Assembly: GCA_003514055.1 (NCBI GenBank)
Contig: DOSG01000002.1
Coordinates: 13,985 to 77,984 of the forward strand
Origin: Candidatus Yanofskybacteria bacterium
GTDB taxonomy: Bacteria > Patescibacteriota > Minisyncoccia > 2-02-FULL-40-12 > GWA2-44-9
Reading direction: 5' to 3'
Length of the DNA stretch: 64,000 nucleotides
The notes beneath the pieces were generated by a model that worked only from the letters and a program-made list of their open reading frames with translations, did not search any database and was not told where the DNA came from. A program made the position numbers and the translations under genes. Positions 3,994-56,584 of this stretch are shown piece by piece. Within the stretch, counting starts at the first letter, position 1. Every line of letters starts with the position of its first letter.

Positions 3994-4419
3994 ATGAAGT
4001 TAAATATTTTTAAAAACGACGAAGATAAGAGCAAGAAGAATTCAAAAAAAGTTGAGGCCACTTTAGATTCGCAGGAAGGTTCGAAAGAGGCAATTAAAGA
4101 GGATGCGGTCTCTAGCTCGATTAAATTAAATTATCTACCTGGAGCCTATAGAGTATTGAAGAGTTTCTATATAAGTGAAAAGGCTACTAACCTTGTGACG
4201 ATGAACCAGTATGTGTTCGTAGTCGGAGACAAGACTAATAAGGTAGAAGTCAAAAAGAATATTGAGAAATTATTTGATGTTAAAGTTAAAGACGTAAGGA
4301 TAATAAATATGCCTAGTAAGATTAGGAATGTCGGCAGACATTCTGGCATTAAATCTGGGTTCAAAAAGGCCATTGTAGTTTTGAAAGATGGCTACTCAAT
4401 AGACCAAGCCAAAGCATAA
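3994..4419 (+). CDS. rplW: 50S ribosomal protein L23 with ~50-aa Lys/Glu-rich N-terminal extension
   Basis: Conserved L23 core starts near YRVLKSFYISEKAT; no internal ATG so the extension appears real. Confidence 0.88.
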   Translation: MKLNIFKNDEDKSKKNSKKVEATLDSQEGSKEAIKEDAVSSSIKLNYLPGAYRVLKSFYISEKATNLVTMNQYVFVVGDKTNKVEVKKNIEKLFDVKVKDVRIINMPSKIRNVGRHSGIKSGFKKAIVVLKDGYSIDQAKA

Positions 4420-4423
4420 AAAC

Positions 4424-5248
4424 ATGAAAAGTTATAATCCTACAACACCATCAAGAAGACATGCCACGGGATATAGTTTTGACAATCTAACCAAGGTTGC
4501 TCCTTTGAAGTCTTTAAAGGGTGGGATTGTGAAATCTACCGGCAGGAATAACCAGGGTATTATAACCAGCTATCATCGCGGCGGCGGCGTTAAGAGACTT
4601 TATAGATTCGTTGATTTTAAACAAAAAAAGTTTGATATACCTGGCAAGATTTTTTCAATAGAATATGATCCGAATAGAACAGCTAGGATCGCCAGAGTTC
4701 ATTTTGCCGATGGCGAAAAGATGTATATCCTTGCTCCGGAGGGAATGAAGGCCGGTGATCCGATTATATTTTCGGAAAAGGCACCATTGAAGTTGGGCAA
4801 TAGAATGAAATTGAAAAATATTCCTCAGGGAATGATGGTCTATAATGTTGAATTATTCCCTGGTCAGGGCGGGAAGATCGTCAGATCTGCTGGAGGCGGA
4901 GCTACGGTTTTAGCCAGCGATGCGGGGCATGTCCACTTAGTGATGCCTTCATCTGAGGTTAGGATGGTTTCTGAAGAATGTTATGCTTCTGTCGGTCAGG
5001 TCTCGAACCAAGAGCATAGCTCAATAGTCCTCGGTAAGGCCGGCCGATCAAGGTGGCTGAACAAGAGACCCAAGGTTAGAGGAACAGCCATGAATCCGGT
5101 TGACCATCCGTATGGCGGAGGAGAGGGGAGACAGGGTAGAGGAACAAGACGACCTAAGACCAGACAAGGTAAGATTACTGGAGGCAGGAAGACTAGGAAT
5201 AAGAAGAAAAAGTCGGGCAAGTTCATAGTTAGAAGAAGGCACAAATAA
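4424..5248 (+). CDS. rplB: 50S ribosomal protein L2
   Basis: L2 family, GRNNQG..., Gly/Arg C-terminus. Confidence 0.97.
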   Translation: MKSYNPTTPSRRHATGYSFDNLTKVAPLKSLKGGIVKSTGRNNQGIITSYHRGGGVKRLYRFVDFKQKKFDIPGKIFSIEYDPNRTARIARVHFADGEKMYILAPEGMKAGDPIIFSEKAPLKLGNRMKLKNIPQGMMVYNVELFPGQGGKIVRSAGGGATVLASDAGHVHLVMPSSEVRMVSEECYASVGQVSNQEHSSIVLGKAGRSRWLNKRPKVRGTAMNPVDHPYGGGEGRQGRGTRRPKTRQGKITGGRKTRNKKKKSGKFIVRRRHK

Positions 5249-5267
5249 TTATCATTAATCTAGAATC

Positions 5268-18361: not shown

Positions 18362-18377
18362 AAAATGACGGCAGTGT

Positions 18378-18420
18378 CCTACAAAAATACGACCCATACG
18401 GGTCGTATTTTTGTAGGCTT
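18378..18420 (+). terminator. Rho-independent terminator (18-bp perfect stem) after surface-protein gene
   Basis: cctacaaaaatacgaccc-atac-gggtcgtatttttgtagg. Confidence 0.8.
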
Positions 18421-18507
18421 AGCAGGGGCCCAACGATCTATATTCAACACAGAGGCTCGAAGTAAAAGCTGGCAAAATTGGCCATTCAGGCGTTATCGGG
18501 AAAGGTG

Positions 18508-18537
18508 TTGACTTGTGTACAAGCTATCTGATATAAT
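18508..18537 (+). promoter_or_regulatory. Sigma70-type promoter for the 23S-5S unit (TTGACT, 18-nt spacer, TATAAT), followed by boxA-like tgctctaatca at about 18612
   Basis: ttgacttgtgtacaagctatctgatataat read directly, about 480 nt upstream of 23S 5' end. Confidence 0.55.
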
Positions 18538-19014
18538 GCCTGTACTTAAATATATGGATAAATCACTACAACTTCTGGTCAAAAGCGGCTGATTGGTCTA
18601 GTGTATTTTTATGCTCTAATCAGAAGCCGCTCGGAAGCGGTAATTTTTTTAAGAGTTTATCTAGACGAGTATCGCGAGTATGGTAATTAAACTCTTACCC
18701 CGCATCCGTAGGCGTAAATGTGTGGTAGAGATAAGTGGATGCAGATAGTATTCGTAGGGATTAAAAATTATACCTTGGCTAGTGGATGGCGGGGTGATCA
18801 AAAGATTGGCTCTCGACGATAGGCCACTAGGCGGCTCTTCGCTGACAGCTAATGAAAGAAGCTTGAAAATTTGTTAGTACGCTTTAGTAGAACGAATTGG
18901 ATATTTGTTTTACTAAAAGCGGGAAAATGCATTAAGTAAAGAAATCACACTGATAGTTACTCATTTGTAGTTAGTAAGAAGAAATATTTATCTAATTTTT
19001 GTAAATCAAAATTT

Positions 19015-22000
19015 AGACGGATATAAGGGCGTATGGAGGATGCCTAGACACTAGAAGGCGATGAAGGTCGTGGCGTGACTGCGATAAACTTCGGGGAGCC
19101 GTCGAGCGGGCTTTGATCCGGAGGTAACCGAATGGGGCAACCCAATATGACAAACTCATATTATCTCGCGTAAGCGAGATGCGTACCTGGGGAAGTGAAA
19201 CATCTCAGTACCCAGAGGAAAAGAGAACGAAGTTATCCCCTTAGTAGCGGCGAGCGAAAAGGGAACAGCCTAAACCGATTTCATAATTTATTATGTCGTC
19301 GGGGTAATAGGGATAGTACAACTAAAAATTTGAATTTCGGTCTTCTTGATCGAGATTCAAGTTTTTAAAAGAAGTTACAAATTCGTGCGTTAGCAGAATG
19401 GCCCTGGAATGGCCAACCAAAGAAGGTGACAGTCCTGTAAGCGAAAACAAACGAACTTCTGTATTATTTCCTGAGTAGCCCGGGATAAGGATGTCCTGGG
19501 TGAATTTGTCCATACTACTGGATAAGGCTAAATACTTCTAGTGATCGATAGTGAACCAGTACCGTGAGGGAAAGGTGAAAAGCACCCCGATGAGGGGAGT
19601 GAAATAGCAACTGAAACCATATGCCTACAAAGAGCAGGAGCCGTACTTTGCACAGAGATCCTAAGTCCTAAACGAATTGGAAAATTGTTTAGAGTTTGGA
19701 AATTAGAATTTAGAGTTTCCGTGCAGGGTGCGGTGACTGTGTGCCTATTGAAGAATGACCCAACGAGTTTATTTAAATTACACTCTAAGTCCTTATGGGA
19801 CGAAGGGGAAGGGAAACCGAGTGTTAATAGCGCGTCATCCAACTTAAATTTTTGGACTACGTAAGTTCAAAAATTTAAGTTGGATATGTAGTTTGAGTAA
19901 GACCCGAAGCCAGGCGAGCTAACCATGACCAGGATGAAGGTTACCGAAAGGTAACTGGAGGTCCGAACCAGTTGGTAGCGCAATACCATTGGATGAGTTG
20001 TGGTTCGTAGTGAAAAGCTTATCGAGCTTGGTAATAGCTGGTTCTCTCCGAAATGCCTTTAGGGGCAGCGTTGCACAGTAGCAGAGGGGGTAGAGCACTG
20101 AATGGTAATCCGTGCCCTTTTGGGTAGGACTACCAAACAAACTCCGAATACCTTTGTGGAATGTGCGGCAGTGAGTAAGCGGGGGCAAAGCTTCGTTTAC
20201 GCAAGGGAAACAGCCCAGATCACCGCTTAAGGTCCCAAAATTTAGACTAAGTGAAAAGGAAGTGTTTTGCCTTAGACAGGTAGGAGGTTGGCTTAGAAGC
20301 AGCCATCCTTTAAAGAGTGCGTAATAGCTCACTATTCGATCTCATCGCAAGATGAGGAGGCAAAGTGCGCCGAAAATTTATAGGGGCTAAGTCTAATACC
20401 GAAAGCGTGGGTTCGGTGATTTCATAAAGGAAAGTTGTGGACAGAGATAGTTCAAGGGAAGAACATCTGGCCTCATAAGCCAGAGATACGTGGCTCAACT
20501 CCACGGCTCTGTCCCATAAGTCGGGCGGGAACGACAATCAATTTCATACAGAACCTGTCTGCCAGACACAGCGGGTTCCACGATTGTTGTTTTCGTCCGA
20601 CAACCTTTCATCTCGTTCTTCGAGATGTCCTTTATGAAACCACCGAGCGGTAGGAGAGCATTCTGATCTGCTGTGAAGGTTCGCTGTGAAGCGGGCTGGA
20701 GCGGTCAGAAGGGAAAATGTTGGGATGAGTAACCGCAAGACCGGTTAAAGTCCGGTCCGTCGTAAGCCTAAGGTTTCCTCCGCGATGGCAATCATCGGAG
20801 GGTTAGGCGTCCCTAAGGATAACCGTGCTTTCGAGCGCGGGATGCCGATGGTGAGCCGGTTAATATTCCGGCCCCACTTATGTATATCTGATTGAGATGA
20901 CGGGCAACACAAGATCAAGCACATTATTGGATTTGATGTTTTCCACCCATAGACTTTCTACCAGGAAAATCCGGTAGAGGCCGCAAGGCAATGTCGAGGG
21001 TAGAAGAAATCGTCGCAAGACGAGATTTGATCGAAGAGGGCTCCAAGAAAAGTCTCTAATGTTAGTACATGAGTGCACGTACCTAAAACCGAAACAGGTG
21101 GGCTGGTGTAAGTGCACCAAGACGAACGGGTGATTATTGGTTAAGGAACTCGGCAAAAAAGCGGCCGTAAGTTCGCGATAAGGCCTGCCGCCGCAAGGCG
21201 GCCACAGCTAAAGAACCCCTGGCGACTGTTTATCAAAAACACAACTCCGTGCTAAGCCGAAAGGCGCTGTATACGGGGTGACGCTTGTCCGGTGCCGGAA
21301 CGTTAACGGTGGAGGTGGTATGTCGCAAGATGTACTGCTGACGCCCGAAGCGCCGGTGAACGACGGCAGTAACTATAACTGTCTAAAAGTAGCAAAATAC
21401 CTTGTGGGGTAAGTTCCCACGCGCATGAATAGCGGAACGACTGGGGGACTGTCTCAACCAATAGCCCGGTGAAAATGCAATGTCGGTAAAGATGCCGACT
21501 TCCCGCGCCAAGACGGAAAGACCCCGGAAGCTTCACTGCAGCTTGGTATTGGTCTACGAGTTGTTATACGTAGCGTAGTGAGTAGGATTTGAAGCCACAC
21601 TCTCGGGTGTGGTGGATCCGCCAATGAAACACTCATTTTAACGATTTGTAGCTCTAACCGGTAACACCCTAAAAGGGTGGGACAATAAAAGCTAAAGTAA
21701 GCTCCTGGTGATAGATTTATTACTGAGAATTTTAGTAATCAATCTTATGGAGTTATTTTAGATTTTATCAATGTCTTACTTTTCTAGGGTGTTATCGAGA
21801 CAGTGCCTGGCGGGCAGTTTAAGTGGGGCACTTTCCTCCCAAAAAGTAATGGAGGAGTTCATCAAGGTTGGCTAGCTCCGGATGGAAATCGGAGCGATAG
21901 TGTAAAGGCACAAGCCAGCTTTACTGCAAGGCGGATATGCCGCGCAGTTGCGAAAGCAGGACCTAGTGAACCGACTCTAACTCGTAGGAGTGGAGAAGAT

Positions 22001-22456
22001 CATCAGATAAAAGCTACTCCGGGGATAACAGGCTGGTACTGCCCGAGCGTTCACAGCGACGGCAGTGTTCGGCACCTCGATGTCGGCTCGCCCTATCCTG
22101 GGACTGAAGAAGGCCCCAAGGGTTTGGCTGTTCGCCAATTAAAAGGGTACGCGAGCTGGGTTCAAACCGTCGTGAGACAGGTTGGTCCATATCTGGCGTG
22201 GGCGTTGAATATTTGAGAGGGGTTGTCCCTAGTACGAGAGGACCGGGACGAACAAACCTCTGGTGAACCAGCTGTTCTGCCAAGAGCATCGCTGGATAGC
22301 TATGTTTGGTTCTGATAAGCGCTGAAAGCATATAAGCGCGAAGCAGGCCTCAAGATGAGATATTCTGGATCCCTTGTAGACTACAAGGTTGATAGGACTC
22401 AGGTGTAAGCACAGCGATGTGTTCAGCCGAGAGTTACTAATTGATCCTCATCCGTC
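19015..22456 (+). rRNA. rrl: 23S ribosomal RNA (about 3.4 kb; includes expansion insertions at about 20430-20650 and 21680-21790)
   Basis: Conserved 23S segments: ggatgcct...gaaggtcgtg; ggggaagtgaaacatctcagtacc; gtgaaccagtaccgtgagggaaaggtgaaaag; agacggaaagaccccg; ggggataacaggctg; cacctcgatgtcggctc; tagtacgagaggaccgg. Confidence 0.92.
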
Positions 22457-22547
22457 TAAATTTTGCTTAGCAAGATTTAGATATTTCTTCTGTAACTGTT
22501 AGTGTAATCACTTAATGTTTTTTGATAGAGTAGTTGGGAGTATCGAT

Positions 22548-22628
22548 TTTTCGAGTGCGGGCTGTATTTTCCTGATGGAAAATCACCCTCTCGCTCGGCG
22601 CCGTCGCGCCTGCGCGGGCCTCTCAAAA
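22548..22628 (+). repeat. Copy A of an ~80-nt structured intergenic repeat family, inside the 23S-5S spacer
   Basis: tttcgagtgcgggctgtattttcctgatggaaaatcaccctctcgctcggcgccgtcgcgcctgcgcgggcctctcaaaa; matches copies at 44.1, 50.9 and 52.7 kb. Confidence 0.75.
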
Positions 22629-22675
22629 CCGACACTCCCAGCTACTCTGGTAGTGTCAGAAAGATCGTGTTTAGT

Positions 22676-35789: not shown

Positions 35790-35808
35790 GTTATTAATAA
35801 TTTATTCG

Positions 35809-35848
35809 AACTAAAAAGACGATGGCATCTGCCATCGTCTTTTTAGTT
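35809..35848. terminator. Bidirectional terminator between convergent recA and rpsR
   Basis: aactaaaaagacgatggc-atct-gccatcgtctttttagtt. Confidence 0.85.
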
Positions 35849-35853
35849 CACTC

Positions 35854-40850: not shown

Positions 40851-40898
40851 GATTAATCAACCTAAAACGCCCATATGGGCGTTTTAGGTTGATTAATC
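40851..40898. repeat. Perfect 23-bp-arm palindrome (hairpin), putative terminator of the convergent rnj gene or a protein-binding site
   Basis: gattaatcaacctaaaacgccca-tat-gggcgttttaggttgattaatc. Confidence 0.6.
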
Positions 40899-42754: not shown

Positions 42755-43016
42755 TTCGATTTCTATAACTGGATCTGGAAAAGATTAGTCAAATTAAAAA
42801 CTGTACTAAAGCTAATTTCGAGATCCTAAATTAAAAAGTAATTTACAAAAAGTGGGCGGGGGGAGATTTGGTCACGAATCACGGCTCACCGTCGTTCGTC
42901 GTGTTCGCGACCCCGCCTCGTGGTTGCATCTGCTGACGCAACATCGCTCCGGCTTTCAAATCTCCCAACACAACAAATAAATTTGTTGTGTTGCCACTAT
43001 TTCAATTATTATTCTG

Positions 43017-44059: not shown

Positions 44060-44090
44060 TTTGATTTTTTGCCTCGGAGGTGGATGTGAG

Positions 44091-44173
44091 TTTTGAGAGG
44101 CCCGCGCAGGCTCGACTGGAGCCGAGCGAGAGGGTGATTTCTCAGTAGAGAAATACAGCCCGTACTCGAGAAA
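44091..44173 (-). repeat. Copy B of the ~80-nt structured repeat family
   Basis: Reverse complement tttctcgagtacgggctgtatttctctactgagaaatcaccctctcgctcggctccagtcgagcctgcgcgggcctctcaaaa. Confidence 0.75.
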
Positions 44174-44191
44174 CTTATAGCCACCGTAGAT

Positions 44192-45982
44192 TTATTTAGA
44201 TGATCTCTTGGTATTAATATACCATTTTTCGACATTAACGAAACGGTCAGATGGCATCGAGATAATTTTGGTTTTAAATCCCTTAATGTCCTTTGCCTGG
44301 CCGTATAGGTAGTCTGGGTTATACAGGAATATCGCGGGGATATCCTCGATGACTATTCTTTGAAAGTCGTCATATTTTTTCATTCTCTCGATTGGATTGA
44401 GAGTCTGGCGTGCTTCTTCTAGTATTGTATCTGCAGTCTTGTTGTCGTATAGGGCTAGATTTAGTCCCTTGTCTTTCTTCTGGGATGAATGCCATAGCGT
44501 AAATGGATCTGGATCTATGCTCAGAATCTCTCCAAAAAGCAAAATCTCGTAAGCCCTTTCTCTTATGGTTTGTTGAAGTGCGGCGATGGGTAGAACTTCG
44601 ATATTCACTTCAAAGCCAATTTTTCCCCACTGCTCTTTAAGGATGTCGGCCGCTTCGGATAATTCGGGCCAGGTTGAGGTGGTTATTTTTATGGTTAATC
44701 TTTTTTCGTTTTTGCCAGTTCCTTTTCTGAGAACGCCTCTCTCGTCCGGGTTAGTCCATCCAGTCTCTTTCAATACCTGCTTAGCCAACTCAGTATCGAA
44801 ATCATATTTCTTAACTTCGTTATTTATATCTATAACGTCGCCCACCAATGGCGAGTTAACTATGCTACCATGCCCGTCCAACACTTTATTTATGATCTCT
44901 TGGCGATCTGTGCCATAAGCCAAAGCTAATCTAATATTTTTATCAGCTAGTACCTCGCTCTGATTGGTGTTCATGAAGGCTCCAAAATATCTTGGCATCT
45001 TAAGCTCCTGCACGTTGAGCCTGTTCCTGAATTTAACCTTATCTAGATTTACGGGAGAGATGTATCCAAGATTCTGGATATCATTTCTATTGTAGGCCTC
45101 AATGAGTTCAATCTCTGAGGCATAGAAATTTAATTTTATAGTGTCTATGTGGGCCCTCCCGTCGTAATAGTTCTCATTAGCGGAAAGTTCGTAGGAGGTT
45201 ATTGTGCCTGTGTTATCTTTCTTTAACTTATTGAACTTATACGGTCCGGAGCCGATTGGCTTGAGATTGAGTTCGGATAGAGAGAAATTTATCGGCTTTA
45301 CTTCTTGCCAGACATGCTTCGGCAATATATTTAGAGTCAAATTATTCAAAAATTGGGCATACTTATCGTTTAATTTTAATATTAGAGTCAATTCGTCGAC
45401 TTTTTCGACGGTGACGCCAGTCCAGTTGGCTTTCTGAAGGCTGCCATAGTCCGAGCTCTGAGCGGTTTCAATAGTAAACAAAACATCATCTGCCGTTAGC
45501 GCTACGCCGTCGTGCCACTTTATGCCCGGTTTAAGATAGACGGTATATTTTAGGCCATCACTAGATATGTCGTATGACTTTGCTAGGTCGGGGACTAACT
45601 TACCCTCTTCGTTATATTTTAGAAGTCCCGAGTATATTAAGCTTACTAGATCTCGATCGGCGTCATTGGCTTGAGATAGAAGTGGATTTATGTGGCGTGG
45701 CTCTCCGACGATACCTTCAACAAAAGAGCCTCCATAATCTGGAGTCTCTTGGGTGTAGTGTCTGTAAGCGGTAACCGGAATAGATAATAATGAGCCTAAT
45801 ATAATTACCAAAAAACTGAAGATGATATATCTTTCTTTGGTGGATAATATTTTAGAAAGAAGTCTAGCCTTTTCTTCTAGGCTTTTGAAAAAGCGCTTTT
45901 TTGGTTTTATAGCTGGTAGCTTGTTGCTATCTTCGGGCTTGTAACCAAAAAAATCATCCAATTGGTTTTCGCTTTTAAGCAT
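44192..45982 (-). CDS. ABC-transporter substrate-binding protein, family 5 (OppA/DppA-like), N-terminal TM anchor
   Basis: SBP_bac_5 pattern (KWHDG...TADDV); 596 aa. Confidence 0.8.
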   Translation of the reverse strand: MLKSENQLDDFFGYKPEDSNKLPAIKPKKRFFKSLEEKARLLSKILSTKERYIIFSFLVIILGSLLSIPVTAYRHYTQETPDYGGSFVEGIVGEPRHINPLLSQANDADRDLVSLIYSGLLKYNEEGKLVPDLAKSYDISSDGLKYTVYLKPGIKWHDGVALTADDVLFTIETAQSSDYGSLQKANWTGVTVEKVDELTLILKLNDKYAQFLNNLTLNILPKHVWQEVKPINFSLSELNLKPIGSGPYKFNKLKKDNTGTITSYELSANENYYDGRAHIDTIKLNFYASEIELIEAYNRNDIQNLGYISPVNLDKVKFRNRLNVQELKMPRYFGAFMNTNQSEVLADKNIRLALAYGTDRQEIINKVLDGHGSIVNSPLVGDVIDINNEVKKYDFDTELAKQVLKETGWTNPDERGVLRKGTGKNEKRLTIKITTSTWPELSEAADILKEQWGKIGFEVNIEVLPIAALQQTIRERAYEILLFGEILSIDPDPFTLWHSSQKKDKGLNLALYDNKTADTILEEARQTLNPIERMKKYDDFQRIVIEDIPAIFLYNPDYLYGQAKDIKGFKTKIISMPSDRFVNVEKWYINTKRSSK

Positions 45983-45992
45983 TGTCTTTAGA

Positions 45993-46211
45993 TTAACGAG
46001 TGAATAATCCCCAGATAGAAGTAGCTAGGAATAAGACGGTAATGACGATTGTGAAATAGAATATGGTTTTCTCGGCTCCGCGCTTTGTTGAATATTCCAT
46101 TGATGAGCCACCTAGCGCCGAAGAAAGTCCACTGCCTCTTTGCTGAAGCAGGATTGAGATTGTTAGAAGCACGGCTAGAACTATTTGTACGTAGGGTAAG
46201 TATTTGATCAT
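45993..46211 (-). CDS. secG: Preprotein translocase subunit SecG
   Basis: LLQQRGSGLSSALGGS, 2 TM, 72 aa. Confidence 0.8.
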   Translation of the reverse strand: MIKYLPYVQIVLAVLLTISILLQQRGSGLSSALGGSSMEYSTKRGAEKTIFYFTIVITVLFLATSIWGLFTR

Positions 46212-46231
46212 TTTTATTATTTTTTTGTGTA

Positions 46232-46585
46232 CTAGTCTATTGTTTTCGTGAAAGTCGCCACTACCATGTTTACTAGGCTTACTATGAGCGTTGCCCAGAC
46301 CAAAGTAGTCAGGTTGTTAATTGCGACTGATACGAAGGCGTAATCGACTAACCACAGCATTAATGCATTAATTACGATTATAAATAAGCCTAGAGTGATG
46401 ATTATTATTGGCGACAAAACTAATTTGAGCGCCGGACGGACTATCATATTAAGTAGTCCCAGGGCTACTCCAGCCAATAGATATTCTTTAATCCCGCCAG
46501 TTATAATAAAAGCTGGCGATAGGAAGTATGTCGCCACATAAAGTGCAGCGGAATTGCCCAAGATTCTGATTAGAAAACCTAGCAT
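46232..46585 (-). CDS. Phage-holin-4-like (YvlD/PF04020-type) membrane protein
   Basis: 4 TM; NMIVRPALKLVLSPIIIITLGLFIIVINALML matches the family core. Confidence 0.6.
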   Translation of the reverse strand: MLGFLIRILGNSAALYVATYFLSPAFIITGGIKEYLLAGVALGLLNMIVRPALKLVLSPIIIITLGLFIIVINALMLWLVDYAFVSVAINNLTTLVWATLIVSLVNMVVATFTKTID

Positions 46586-47049
46586 ATGTTAACTTATTTG
46601 CGATTTAAATGATATCATACGGGTCAAAAATATCAATGGCAATGATCGCTTGGATAATCACTTGTTCGACATGTCAGAATTTCCCAGCGAGAAATTCTGA
46701 CTAATTTCCTCGGCTCGCTCGTCCTTCTCCGGCAGTCGCCGGATTAGGACACCTGCCCGCTCGCCTCCGGATTGTCTCACAAGTGACTATCCTCGCTATT
46801 TTAGGTAGATGCGAAGCCTTAGTCATTTTGTGCAAGTTTTAATCTGTGCAAGCGAAAGCTCAAGTCTACAGCGAGAACTCGCGCAGGCGTTTCGGCTATA
46901 ACATATTTGATATAGCCCCGAAGGGGCGATAAGAAAACGGATCTTCGAAATGCCGAGCGTGTAGATAGTCGAGCTCGCAGGAAGCGAGAACTATCGGTTG
47001 AGTCGTGGGCTTGGGCTGGAGCGACTTGACTATCGGTGCAAAGAAATGA

Positions 47050-48306
47050 TTAAGGCGTAGTCATATTTCTGTGGAGTTTGCGGTAGTAGCTGATGGCGAA
47101 GCGGTGAGCTTCGGCGTCGACATTGAGAACTATGTTTCTGACGTCAGCTGGAAGCTTATCCAATTTGATAGGCAACTTGCGTCCGCGTATGTATATGTGA
47201 CTGCCGACGTGTTTCTCATTTTTCGTCAGAGACAATAGCGCAATATCTTTTGGCACTATGCTCGAGGCTATATTCAATTGTCCCTTGCCGCCATCTATTA
47301 TCACTAGGTTGGGCTTTGCCCATTCTGAATGCCTGAAACGCCTAGTCAAAATCTCTTTAAGCATGCGAGTATCGTCTGAGACATTTGAATCTCTAATTTT
47401 AAATTTTCGGTAACCACTTTTATCTGCTAACCCATTCTTAAATGTGACCATTGACCCAACGGCGTTGATGCCCTGAATATTAGATATGTCGTAACCCTCT
47501 ATTCTGACGGCGCTAGTTAGTCCGAAAAATTTCGCAATAGTCTCTAATTTTGAATTATGATCTTCGTCATTAATTCTTTTATCGATTATTTGCGAGTTTC
47601 TGAATATTTTTTTAATTGCATCAAGCTTATCTCTGATCTTGATGGCTTCGTCGAATCTTTCTTTCTTGCCTAAGATAATCATTTTTTTCTTTAAGCTTGT
47701 CACGATATTATTTCTCTTTCTCGCTAAAATCTTCTTAATGATGTATATATTCTTGTCGTAATTCTTGATTTCATCTTTGGTAGCTTCACGTTTTTTTAGA
47801 CAGCAAAAACCAGAACAATTACCAATATGATAGTTGAGACAATAGTTATTGTGAAGTTGTTTACAGGTACAGTAGAGGAATGCTCTTCGAAGTTGCTTCA
47901 ATGTGGTTTTGAGTGCCGTGCTATCGGTGAATGGCCCGATGTCTTGGATGCTCATCGGCTGACGAACAATCGTTATTCTTGGAAATTGATCATCGGAAAA
48001 TTGGACATATGAGTATTGTTTGTCATCTCGTAAAACTATATTGAACTTTGGACGCAGCTTCTTTATCAGCTGGGCTTCCAAAATCAGAGCTTCAATATCG
48101 GAATCGGTGTTTTGAAAGTTTATGATGGTAGCTGCCTGGATCATGGTCGTTATTCTAGTATCCGTGGGTCGGGAATAGCTCTTGAGCCTATTCTTTATAT
48201 TATTGGCCTTACCTACGTACAAAATTGCATCTTTATTTCTAAATATGTATATTCCTGACCCATTTGGGGCTTTTGCTATGATATTTTTGAGTTTTCCGGC
48301 TATCAT
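47050..48306 (-). CDS. uvrC: UvrC-like excinuclease, short form (GIY-YIG, Cys4, UVR and RNase-H-like domains; no C-terminal HhH2)
   Basis: N-terminus GIYIFRNKDAILYVGKANNIKNRLKSY; Cys cluster; ends ...DAEAHRFAISYYRKLHR. Confidence 0.85.
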   Translation of the reverse strand: MIAGKLKNIIAKAPNGSGIYIFRNKDAILYVGKANNIKNRLKSYSRPTDTRITTMIQAATIINFQNTDSDIEALILEAQLIKKLRPKFNIVLRDDKQYSYVQFSDDQFPRITIVRQPMSIQDIGPFTDSTALKTTLKQLRRAFLYCTCKQLHNNYCLNYHIGNCSGFCCLKKREATKDEIKNYDKNIYIIKKILARKRNNIVTSLKKKMIILGKKERFDEAIKIRDKLDAIKKIFRNSQIIDKRINDEDHNSKLETIAKFFGLTSAVRIEGYDISNIQGINAVGSMVTFKNGLADKSGYRKFKIRDSNVSDDTRMLKEILTRRFRHSEWAKPNLVIIDGGKGQLNIASSIVPKDIALLSLTKNEKHVGSHIYIRGRKLPIKLDKLPADVRNIVLNVDAEAHRFAISYYRKLHRNMTTP

Positions 48307-48336
48307 TTGGACCTAAGTATACCCTAAAATACACTA

Positions 48337-48366
48337 TTGACAAACGGGGTATAAGTGTGCTATAAT
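48337..48366 (+). promoter_or_regulatory. Consensus sigma70 promoter (TTGACA, 18-nt spacer, TATAAT) facing the GC-rich cassette
   Basis: ttgacaaacggggtataagtgtgctataat read directly; followed by 5'UTR hairpin tggagcc-gtt-ggctcca. Confidence 0.55.
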
Positions 48367-48440
48367 GGGCATACAGTACGGTACAATTTGATTCAGCATC
48401 GTAAACTCGAAATGGAGCCGTTGGCTCCAAGAGGACGAAG

Positions 48441-48833
48441 ATGGCAATCAGGAATGAGCTTCGGGTGGCGTTTGACGCATTGCGGGAGCGGATCATCCGC
48501 GACAAGACCAAGCGTCTGCCGGATCTGAGCGCGGCCATCGAGGCGGCGTTCGAGGTTGGCGACGACGAAGAGGTCGATCGTATGATGGGCCTCCGCGAGA
48601 GGCTCGAAGCGACGATCGAGATCGATGAGCTGGAACTGCGCCTTCTCGGCAACGAGATCGGCCAGCCGTTCCGGCAAAACGACGTCGTCGACGTACGCAT
48701 CATCTCGTGGGGCCTGGGCGGCAAAGGCCAGGCCGAGGTGAAGATCGCGGCTCGCGACGGGAAAACCGTCGTTCGCCACATGCATCTCATCAATGGGCGT
48801 GATCGCTACGGCAACCGCTATGCGACATTCTAG
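48441..48833 (+). CDS. Hypothetical 130-aa protein in a >60% GC island
   Basis: Strong GC3 periodicity in this frame; gagga RBS; no family recognised. Confidence 0.55.
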   Translation: MAIRNELRVAFDALRERIIRDKTKRLPDLSAAIEAAFEVGDDEEVDRMMGLRERLEATIEIDELELRLLGNEIGQPFRQNDVVDVRIISWGLGGKGQAEVKIAARDGKTVVRHMHLINGRDRYGNRYATF

Positions 48834-48845
48834 GAGGAGGAAATC

Positions 48846-49058
48846 ATGACGCAGGTACTCGGCAAGACTCCGGCGGGCAAGTTGAAGGTTCTCGTCGACG
48901 GACGTGAGTGCGAAGGCTGCCCCGGCAGCCTGATCGCCACCCACGAGCCGGGCATTTTCACCAGAGAGGGCGAGTTCATCGCTCTGCCGGTGGTGAGCGA
49001 CGTCGAGACGCATCAGCTCGCGGTGCCCACGGTCGACGGCCAGTTCCTCTTCTTGTAG
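48846..49058 (+). CDS. Hypothetical 70-aa protein in the GC-rich island
   Basis: aggaggagg Shine-Dalgarno 7 nt upstream; GC3-rich frame. Confidence 0.5.
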   Translation: MTQVLGKTPAGKLKVLVDGRECEGCPGSLIATHEPGIFTREGEFIALPVVSDVETHQLAVPTVDGQFLFL

Positions 49059-49272
49059 GGACCAGCTCTCGGCGACGGCGCCAGGACGGGTCGGAGGCAA
49101 AGTCTCGACCAACTAACGGCAATCGCCGCCGTCCCGTCCACTCCAACAACAAAAATAGACTGCGCGATGTGCGCAATCAGGAGCGTCGAATGCCAGGTTG
49201 AACGCCACGGTGATGGGTTCCGGAAAAAACCCTCGGGTCAAAGCAGGCATGACCTTGGAACAGAACCTGTAA

Positions 49273-49297
49273 GCGGCACGCGAGTGCCGCTTTTTTT
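49273..49297 (+). terminator. Rho-independent terminator closing the GC-rich cassette
   Basis: gcggcac-gcga-gtgccgc followed by ttttttt. Confidence 0.8.
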
Positions 49298-49461
49298 CAT
49301 GCTTTAAAACTGCGCTTCGCCCCATCCATTTTTTCATCTTGTCCTCGACTACGCCAAGTCTAATCGATAGAGAAACAATGATGCAGGCGAGGACACGATG
49401 AAAAGATACTATTGATGGCGCCGCCATTGTTTTTTACTCGCTATCTGATTACCATGTCTGT

Positions 49462-50860: not shown

Positions 50861-50896
50861 TTAAAACCTAAACTTAAAAACGATCAGTAATGTGCA

Positions 50897-52636
<1,740 letters not shown>

Positions 52637-52676
52637 TCATTTTTTAAAGTCACGAGAAAGGGCATAGGTATGGGTT

Positions 52677-52798
52677 TTTCGAGTACGGGCTGTATTTCTC
52701 TACTGGGAAATCACCCTCTCCCTACAGAGACTTGGAGGATGGGCTAAAGCACCATCCCTCCGAGGCGGCGCCGTCGAGCCTGCGCGGGCCTCTCGAAA
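52677..52798 (+). repeat. Copy D of the repeat family, carrying a nested 45-nt hairpin insertion, inside the stem-loop of the groEL terminator
   Basis: tttcgagtacgggctgtatttctctactgggaaatcaccctctcc[ctacagagacttggaggatgggctaaagcaccatccctccgagg]cggcgccgtcgagcctgcgcgggcctctcgaaa; flanks gggcatagg...cctatgccc-ttttt. Confidence 0.75.
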
Positions 52799-52932
52799 CT
52801 CACGCCTATGCCCTTTTTGTTTGGCTGCAATAACCATGGCTGTCTTTTCGGCCTCAAAGACAGCCATGGTTATTGATTGACCGGAGCGACTTAATGTTCT
52901 AGAATTTAGGTAACAATTTAAATACAAATACT

Positions 52933-56461: not shown

Positions 56462-56584
56462 ATTTAGTATCGGAGTCAACCCATTTATCTATGACGAATG
56501 TGCGACCCGAGTACATAAATTACAAACAAAAATACACGAATTATTCGTGTATTTTTGTTTGTCTAAAATTGCTAAAATGTATTT

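Follow-up and report, generated by a model that had tools for sequence, protein, structure and literature searches.

A long uvrC–DUF360 spacer in a Candidatus Yanofskybacteria genome: two adjacent stem-loops and a dispersed structured repeat

What is the long, hairpin-rich stretch of DNA that separates uvrC from its downstream neighbour in a genome of the Candidate Phyla Radiation (CPR)? The DNA analysed here, referred to as the window, is a 64,000 nt stretch of a CPR/Parcubacteria genome whose closest named relatives are Candidatus Yanofskybacteria metagenome-assembled genomes (MAGs). Identical DNA is present in MGLA01000012.1 (GCA_001794775.1) and in scaffolds from the Rifle aquifer metagenome. 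Positions 46586–47049 of the window form the spacer between two minus-strand genes, uvrC and a DUF360 gene, and an initial annotation proposed this block as a candidate structured non-coding RNA. Our preferred explanation, which we hold to be probable without regarding it as firm, is that the spacer is made of two adjacent giant stem-loops. One, D2, would be a copy of a dispersed repeat and the other, D1, is specific to the species. Both would act as transcribed 3′-end or processing structures, in the manner of enterobacterial repetitive intergenic consensus (ERIC) and repetitive extragenic palindromic (REP) elements.

The block is real non-coding DNA that folds strongly. Covariation in the D2 helices and conservation of the D1 flanks support selection on its structure. 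In these respects the initial annotation stands; the notion of a single RNA gene of ~460 nt does not. Annotations should not list the block among housekeeping non-coding RNA genes.

Folding, coding capacity and known RNA families

The main features of the locus are as follows.

47050–48306, minus strand: uvrC, 418 aa, with GIY-YIG, UVR and UvrC RNase H domains and without an HhH domain
47050–47052, minus strand: uvrC stop codon (UAA), within the outermost D1 helix
46816–47056, minus strand: D1, a 241-nt stem-loop at the uvrC 3′ end, in which long inner helices enclose a three-way junction
46645–46799, plus strand: D2, a 155-nt domain; its repeat-family forward direction is the window plus strand, antisense to uvrC and DUF360
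46609–46642, minus strand: sigma-70-like promoter of DUF360–secG, TTGCCA/TTGATA ... TG-n-TATCAT, with a counterpart at the spacer 3′ end in relatives
46232–46585, minus strand: DUF360 membrane-protein gene (PF04020 'Phage_holin_4_2'), followed by secG and then an SBP_bac_5 gene

There is no open reading frame (ORF) of 60 aa or more on either strand of the block, the longest being 44 and 40 aa. Domain content (PF04020; GIY-YIG/UVR/RNase H) confirms that the neighbours are, as first described, a holin-like gene and uvrC. The raised GC content reported earlier is clear against other intergenic gaps (0.32–0.46) but modest against the window (0.472 compared with 0.424; 91st percentile of 464-nt windows). 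Fold z-scores of the block were computed against dinucleotide shuffles. The whole block folds better than the shuffles, with z-scores of −3.1 for the plus strand and −4.85 for the minus strand. Strong folding is common in the window; ~9 of the 15 intergenic gaps of at least 150 nt reach z ≤ −3. Hence, hairpin density is not special to the block.

Apart from one, the hairpins named at the outset are present. The pair gtcagaatttc/gaaattctgac forms a perfect 11-bp stem (46673–46683/46691–46701, ~3 nt from where it had been placed), and the hairpin at 46894–46903/46908–46917, ccccgaagggg and ctcgc-aggaa-gcgag are all found. Conversely, gcgag-aa-ctcgc, with its 2-nt loop, cannot form as written. 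Repeated motifs of 7–10 nt are also there, but they are mostly by-products of the stems and make weak evidence.

The block resembles Rfam RNA genes (transfer-messenger RNA (tmRNA), RNase P, signal recognition particle (SRP) RNA and 6S RNA) in size range, in GC-richness relative to an AT-rich genome and in strong folding. Conversely, it is not kept in close relatives and has no cmscan match, either at the gathering threshold or at E ≤ 10. Across the window, Rfam 15 at the gathering threshold returned only 23S and 5S rRNAs and tRNAs, and cmscan of 46400–47250 at E ≤ 10 returned only chance snoRNA-like matches. ARAGORN called three tRNAs in the window and no tmRNA. Taken together, cmscan and ARAGORN were negative for tmRNA, RNase P, SRP, 6S and all other Rfam families. 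The lack of an RNase P, SRP or tmRNA match noted earlier is borne out, and the tmRNA-like identity then considered is not supported.

Could the whole block still be one stand-alone structured RNA gene, whether tmRNA-like, RNase P-like or a new large RNA? Such a gene would account for GC content above that of other intergenic DNA, for significant folding on both strands and for D1 flanks kept above the neutral rate in the relative L010. However, besides lacking any Rfam or tmRNA match, the block folds as two independent domains, one of which, D2, is a repeat copy. It is bracketed by neither a promoter nor a terminator. It is missing from L093 and L002, and other relatives have shorter or non-homologous spacers. 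We regard a single RNA gene as very improbable. (L-numbers denote the related loci and contigs used for comparison, ~0.5 Mb in total.)

A further possibility is a pseudogene in decay, such as a lost (HhH)2 C-terminus of UvrC or the remains of some other ORF. UvrC here has 418 aa and no HhH domain, the 464 nt of the block equal ~155 codons, and an in-phase open frame of 76 codons follows the uvrC stop. However, HhH-less UvrC of 410–450 aa is the clade norm, often with DUF360 directly after it. Translation of the block in six frames gave no peptide with a Pfam match. Differences from L010 break the frame; indels are not multiples of three and substitutions follow no codon pattern. We rejected the pseudogene on these grounds of UvrC length, Pfam and frame, and consider it barely credible.

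Across Parcubacteria, the order uvrC, DUF360, secG, SBP is widely kept, and the uvrC–DUF360 spacer is usually 10–90 nt. L093, the complete relative that stands closest (DUF360 81% and UvrC 57% identical), has 57 nt, and L002 has 15 nt. Sporadically the spacer reaches 170–800 nt, and such long spacers are mostly unalignable to one another. Direct MAFFT alignment of the syntenic spacers gave nothing usable and, hence, single-sequence covariance models were used instead. The spacers of L014, L015 and L021 contain a different, mutually alignable structured element of the GCGGAGGGAG...CUCCCUCCGC type; in L021 two inverted copies surround ~340 nt. Since different structured elements are found here, structured repeats in general seem to land, or to be retained, in the uvrC–DUF360 spacer. 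Separately, L024 (~5190–5266) and L029 (~4247–4384) have a long hairpin, GCCAGGUAGUAG...CUACUACCUGG, in the DUF360 5′ untranslated region between promoter and start codon, which is absent from the window. The independent short-read contigs L010 and L101, both from related organisms, break inside the spacer, 205 nt and 134 nt past uvrC. This is the pattern that assembly-interrupting repeats would produce.

A dispersed three-stem repeat family and the place of D2

The repeat family has a unit of ~110 nt. Its GC-rich core consists of three stems, P3, P4 and a short P5, enclosed by short inverted ends, UUUCGAG...CUCGAAA, and then by an outer stem of 12–22 bp. Queries with the 23S–5S spacer element in blastn and nhmmer brought out four copies in the window.

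22530–22645, plus strand: copy 1, in the 23S–5S rRNA spacer, sense
44074–44190, minus strand: copy 2, beginning 1 nt past the SBP_bac_5 stop codon, sense, upstream of a PGI-like gene
50880–50995, minus strand: copy 3, between groES and groEL, antisense
52658–52815, plus strand: copy 4, 22 nt past the groEL stop codon, sense, with an extra 42-nt hairpin between P3 and P4

The ~85-nt cores of these four copies are almost identical and end in a 7–8-bp inverted repeat (TTTCGAG/CTCGAAA). The longer outer stems are not conserved; their sequences are wholly different between copies, and complementarity is always kept. This pattern suggests either insertion into pre-existing palindromes or compensatory evolution. 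The outer stem of copy 4 is followed by UUUUUGUUU, and together these look like the groEL terminator.

We used three covariance models: R1, made from D2 alone; R2, made from the four window copies; and R3, the rebuilt family model. R2 matched three copies within 8.4 kb of L011 (41–62 bits), one of them in the uvrC–DUF360 spacer. It also matched L002 directly past the SBP stop codon (36 bits) and L004, a contig labelled Saccharibacteria, 26 nt past a 700-aa ORF (62.5 bits). R3 matched the uvrC–DUF360 spacer of L102, which was in no training set, with 68.6 bits. The family is patchy, with clear copies in only five other contigs. It is multi-copy, as expected of miniature inverted-repeat transposable elements (MITEs), with four near-identical copies and D2 in 64 kb of the window and the three copies of L011.

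Across nine aligned sequences, pairing holds in 92.7% of cells, and both partners have changed in 32 of 41 pairs. The covariation score is 0.735, compared with 0.234 for shuffles and 0.10–0.17 for slid partners. On this comparative evidence, the family stems are shown to be under strong selection. Copies are intergenic and both orientations occur; most copies are sense and begin 0–26 nt past a stop codon. Copies also lie inside operons (23S–5S, groES–groEL and SBP–PGI), which argues against their being strong terminators.

No family copy has a match in Rfam 15, down to E ≤ 10, and full-text literature searches on repeats, MITEs and non-coding RNA in CPR, Patescibacteria and Saccharibacteria turned up no description of the family. 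It is apparently uncatalogued. Phage and plasmid collections gave no family match. A scan of viral contigs gave one chance match, in a GC-rich contig, that the model did not recognise. Matches to a shared hairpin-loop motif, UUUC..CUGG..GAAA, were at chance level. A second GC-rich module of ~110 nt, closed by GGGAGAUUUG/CAAAUCUCCC, lies at 42755–43015 (minus strand) between tRNA-Leu and an RNase J gene. It folds with z-scores of −4.8 (plus) and −6.1 (minus) and is unrelated in sequence to the family; further copies among the related loci were not found.

D2 contains two hairpins that correspond to family stems.

46673–46701, plus strand: hairpin corresponding to P3, GUCAGAAUUUC / GAAAUUCUGAC
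46721–46749, plus strand: hairpin corresponding to P4, extended, with loop AGUC

Both are perfect and lie inside an outer stem of 13–14 bp, formed by pairing of 46652–46665 with 46779–46792. Alone, the plus strand of D2 folds with a z-score of −7.26. The architecture of the family is found in D2 in the right order: outer stem, UUCGAG-type closing helix, P3, a CUCNCUC-like linker and P4 with a (C/A)GUC loop. P4 is extended and P5 is not recognisable.

R1 matched an element in the L032 spacer (34.9 bits) and, unexpectedly, the 23S–5S spacer of the window (33.9 bits). With filters off, R1 found exactly the loci and strands found by R3, namely two in L011 together with L004, L002, L032 and L024. 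By local alignment, D2 is similar to the L032 element (z = 6.2, reaching into the flank) and to the L011 copies (z ~3). R3 aligns the D2 interior at 24.5 bits. The window, L011, L102, L032 and L024 all have the element in the same uvrC–DUF360 spacer and in the same antisense orientation. Among eight D2-type sequences from six genomes, 96.8% of helix cells are paired and 43 of 50 pairs show compensatory changes, although an alignment fitted to the model flatters these figures. We accept D2 as what appears to be an old, diverged member of the dispersed family.

The family, D2 included, could alternatively be a class of functional RNA. It might be a small self-cleaving ribozyme, a processing 'punctuation' mark where genes end, or an RNA gene whose master copy lies in the spacer and whose daughters are dispersed. 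The core sequence and the stems P3 and P4 show both conservation and covariation when contigs labelled Yanofskybacteria are compared with one labelled Saccharibacteria. In 5 of 9 copies the P5 hairpin is capped by a GAAA or GUAA tetraloop, and 7 of the 11 clear copies are sense and near a stop codon (≤26 nt) or in an rRNA spacer. The spacer copy keeps its place, orientation and intact stems in five lineages. On the plus strand, a promoter-like site (46589–46618; a TG and 9/12 matches) points towards D2, and the D2 outer stem has a U-rich tract after it. Against these points, no copy matches a ribozyme or other RNA family in Rfam, copies occur in both orientations relative to transcription, and the family is missing from most related loci. 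The window's own copies have no GNRA loop in P5, and G.U and A.C helix counts are equal. A conserved divergent promoter for D2 on the plus strand was sought in L011, L102 and L032, and none was found. With only the 9/12 site of the window in its favour, D2 as a promoter-driven small RNA gene was rejected. We think the functional RNA class unlikely, though it is the strongest competitor of the repeat explanation. A bolder form of the idea is, if anything, slightly less likely. Here, the ~110-nt element would be a new functional RNA class of CPR phyla, a punctuation module or small ribozyme whose invariant core works inside any long closing helix. In at least five Yanofskybacteria-like lineages, the antisense uvrC–DUF360 copy, D2 included, would then count as a functional locus under conservation, not as debris.

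D1 and the 3′ end of uvrC

Within and next to D1 the following parts can be distinguished.

46964–46995, minus strand: inner hairpin, GAUAGUUCUCGC-UUCCU-GCGAGCUCGACUAUC, identical in L010
46892–46953, minus strand: variable tip, with a GC-rich hairpin, GCCCC-UUCG-GGGGC, and an AU hairpin, GGCUAUA..UAUAGCC
46800–46815, minus strand: linker between D1 and D2, with ..CCUAAAAUAGCGAG, a flank common to the L032 spacer element

The outermost helix pairs 47056–47045 with 46828–46816 and includes the uvrC stop codon. Alone, the minus strand of D1 folds with z-scores of −3.95 to −4.35. Apart from members of the same species, only L010, a Logan contig with a 93% identical UvrC, yielded a homologue of D1. 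Identity to L010 is 96.9% over the first 96 nt past the stop codon and 89.7% over another 39 nt. The D1 flanks are 94.8% identical, compared with 81.8% for 4-fold sites of uvrC (Fisher p = 0.0013); identity in the intergenic comparison region upstream of uvrC is 87.3%. These differences support constraint on D1. In L010 the ~62-nt tip is swapped for unrelated sequence with a 13-bp GC hairpin, GACCCCGCC..GGCGGGGUC. Six of the eight D1 substitutions relative to L010 are C>U or A>G on the minus strand and are wobble-safe on that strand only. This is a weak hint that the minus-strand D1 RNA may matter.

D1 resembles the repeat family in general architecture only. R3 scores it at 6.6 bits and local alignment gives z < 1. 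Two colinear 8-mers shared with the family, CGCTCGGC and GCCTGCGCG, are reached by 7.4% of shuffles. We therefore rejected D1 as a family member, the scores not being significant.

The position of D1 raises the question of whether the structures are simply a uvrC terminator or insulator, with no repeat ancestry and no other meaning. D1 begins at the uvrC stop codon, and an A/U-rich stretch follows its GC-rich hairpin. At the corresponding place L010 carries a different GC-rich hairpin, and obvious terminator hairpins open the spacers of L032, L014, L012 and L001. However, a consensus scan of 45900–48500 for terminators with a stem and U-tract found none. The GCCCC-UUCG-GGGGC hairpin is followed by UAUAUCAAAU only, and so falls short of an intrinsic terminator (a GC stem of at least 5 bp with a U-tract). 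Moreover, D2 matches a family with copies inside operons, and 400 nt is far beyond what termination needs, since spacers of 15–57 nt suffice in relatives. A mere terminator or insulator is thus distinctly improbable. Elsewhere in the window, perfect hairpins of 17–20 bp follow several genes (52827–52876, 35807–35850, 40853–40896 and 56522–56562) and look like real intrinsic terminators of the genome. The same hairpins explain low-scoring matches of every hairpin-rich covariance model used.

A sigma-70-like promoter (TTGAAA...TG-n-TATCAT) is found at the DUF360-proximal end of the spacer in every relative compared; in L011 and L102 it reads TTGAAA-17-TATCAT. As this conserved promoter lies downstream of the structures, the structured DNA cannot be the leader of the DUF360 operon. 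A DUF360–secG leader or riboswitch was rejected for this reason; only ~25 nt remain between the promoter and the ATG.

Possible roles and likeness to known repeats

The block lies between the uvrC stop codon and the DUF360–secG promoter. We propose that its modules spread or persist as DNA repeats, as ERIC, REP and BOX elements do. Transcribed within the neighbouring mRNAs, they would fold into very stable RNA structures. Such structures, serving in RNase III-type processing or in transcript stability and not as classical terminators, would define or protect the uvrC 3′ end and set uvrC apart from the transcription unit that follows. Long perfect stems would plausibly suit either role, RNase III processing or stabilisation. 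D1 would be the structured 3′ end of the uvrC transcript, and D2 a repeat copy that has been retained immediately upstream of the promoter that follows.

Several observations weigh against this proposal. D1 has no significant similarity to the family, or to anything beyond its own species and L010. For D2, the family models (R2/R3) give 20–24.5 bits (E ~0.001–0.02), no higher than plain long terminator hairpins. This score is indecisive alone and, hence, membership rests on the reciprocal model matches, synteny and the L032 and L011 alignments. A passive repeat would hardly be expected to keep its position, orientation and intact stems in five lineages, and conserved placement in the spacer could mean a locus-specific function. 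The family helices contain 13 G.U and 12 A.C pairs, so that neither strand, nor RNA over DNA, is favoured. No target-site duplication, and no pair of empty and filled sites, was found for the family. No transposase or RAYT/IS200-like gene turned up in the window, where genes were not screened for one. Mobility is inferred only from copy number and patchiness. An apparent indel between L005 and L008 is a run of Ns, an assembly gap and their sole difference, and was rejected as evidence of mobility through strain polymorphism.

How does the family compare with known repeats? ERIC elements, or intergenic repeat units (IRUs), are imperfect palindromes of ~127 bp in Enterobacteriaceae and Vibrio. 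Like these, the family is multi-copy, ~100–130 nt long, found in transcribed intergenic DNA, including operons, in either orientation, and would give a long imperfect stem-loop RNA. In both, some copies have extra insertions at a fixed internal site, here the 42 nt of copy 4. Conversely, the sequences are unrelated and the hosts of the family are CPR (MAGs labelled Yanofskybacteria and Saccharibacteria). ERIC is a simple palindrome, whereas the family core is a three-way junction. Within a single genome this core hardly changes from copy to copy, and the outer stem differs.

REP elements are simple palindromes of ~35 nt with a conserved GTAG, linked to a gene for a REP-associated tyrosine transposase (RAYT), an IS200/IS605-like Y1 transposase. 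REP and the bacterial interspersed mosaic elements (BIMEs) are thought to stabilise upstream mRNA. The family shares with REP/BIME its extragenic location just past stop codons, its structured nature and its patchiness between genomes. It differs in having three stems and a unit of ~110 nt, three times the length of REP.

MITE-type palindromic repeats include the Correia elements of Neisseria, the Rickettsia palindromic elements (RPEs) and pneumococcal BOX/RUP. Correia elements can be processed by RNase III in mRNA, and RPEs can sit in-frame in ORFs. The family is similarly non-autonomous and ~100–150 nt long, with stable hairpins and short inverted core ends (TTTCGAG/CTCGAAA). Target-site duplications were not detected, and the family differs in its long outer stems, which are particular to each copy and do not form conserved terminal repeats. 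A segment reminiscent of an RPE lies in uvrC of L072, a distant relative, where the variable linker before the IGPF motif (737–838) is encoded by an in-frame, hairpin-forming insert, AAGCGAGG-UAAGCAAGUUUUUUCGAGG...CGAGGAAAAACUUGCUUACC-GAGCGG, with flanks that resemble those of D2.

Two other parts of the window are unusual. Between uvrC and a nucleotidyltransferase-like gene lies a GC-rich island (48307–49461; 60–67% GC, genome 42%), in which a perfect sigma-70 promoter (48337–48366; 12/12 matches and TG) drives ORFs of 130 aa (48441–48833, plus strand) and 70 aa. The ~130-aa gene matches nothing in Pfam and, between the window and L010, diverges far more quickly than uvrC. It is kept divergent from uvrC in L010, L011 and L093, at 62–65% GC in loci of 39–47%; the island is absent from L001. 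In the rRNA region, ARAGORN and Rfam (43 bits) call a tRNA-Met (CAT) at 20441–20516 inside the 23S gene (19013–22461), which is ~520 nt above the bacterial consensus length because of several insertions. Upstream of it there is no 16S gene but a strongly folding leader of 651 nt (18362–19012, z ~ −6).

CPR genomes are tiny and thought to be poor in repetitive DNA. The family described here is a new, well-supported structured repeat family in CPR, with strong covariation, a near-invariant core and copies in contigs labelled as two phyla. Structured repeats and long stem-loops would explain much of the GC-rich, hairpin-dense intergenic DNA of this genome. The family bears on why CPR assemblies break, two related contigs ending just past uvrC, and on the masking of repeats in the hunt for true non-coding RNAs. 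As a structured element kept at gene ends, it may also bear on how CPR transcripts are processed and stabilised.

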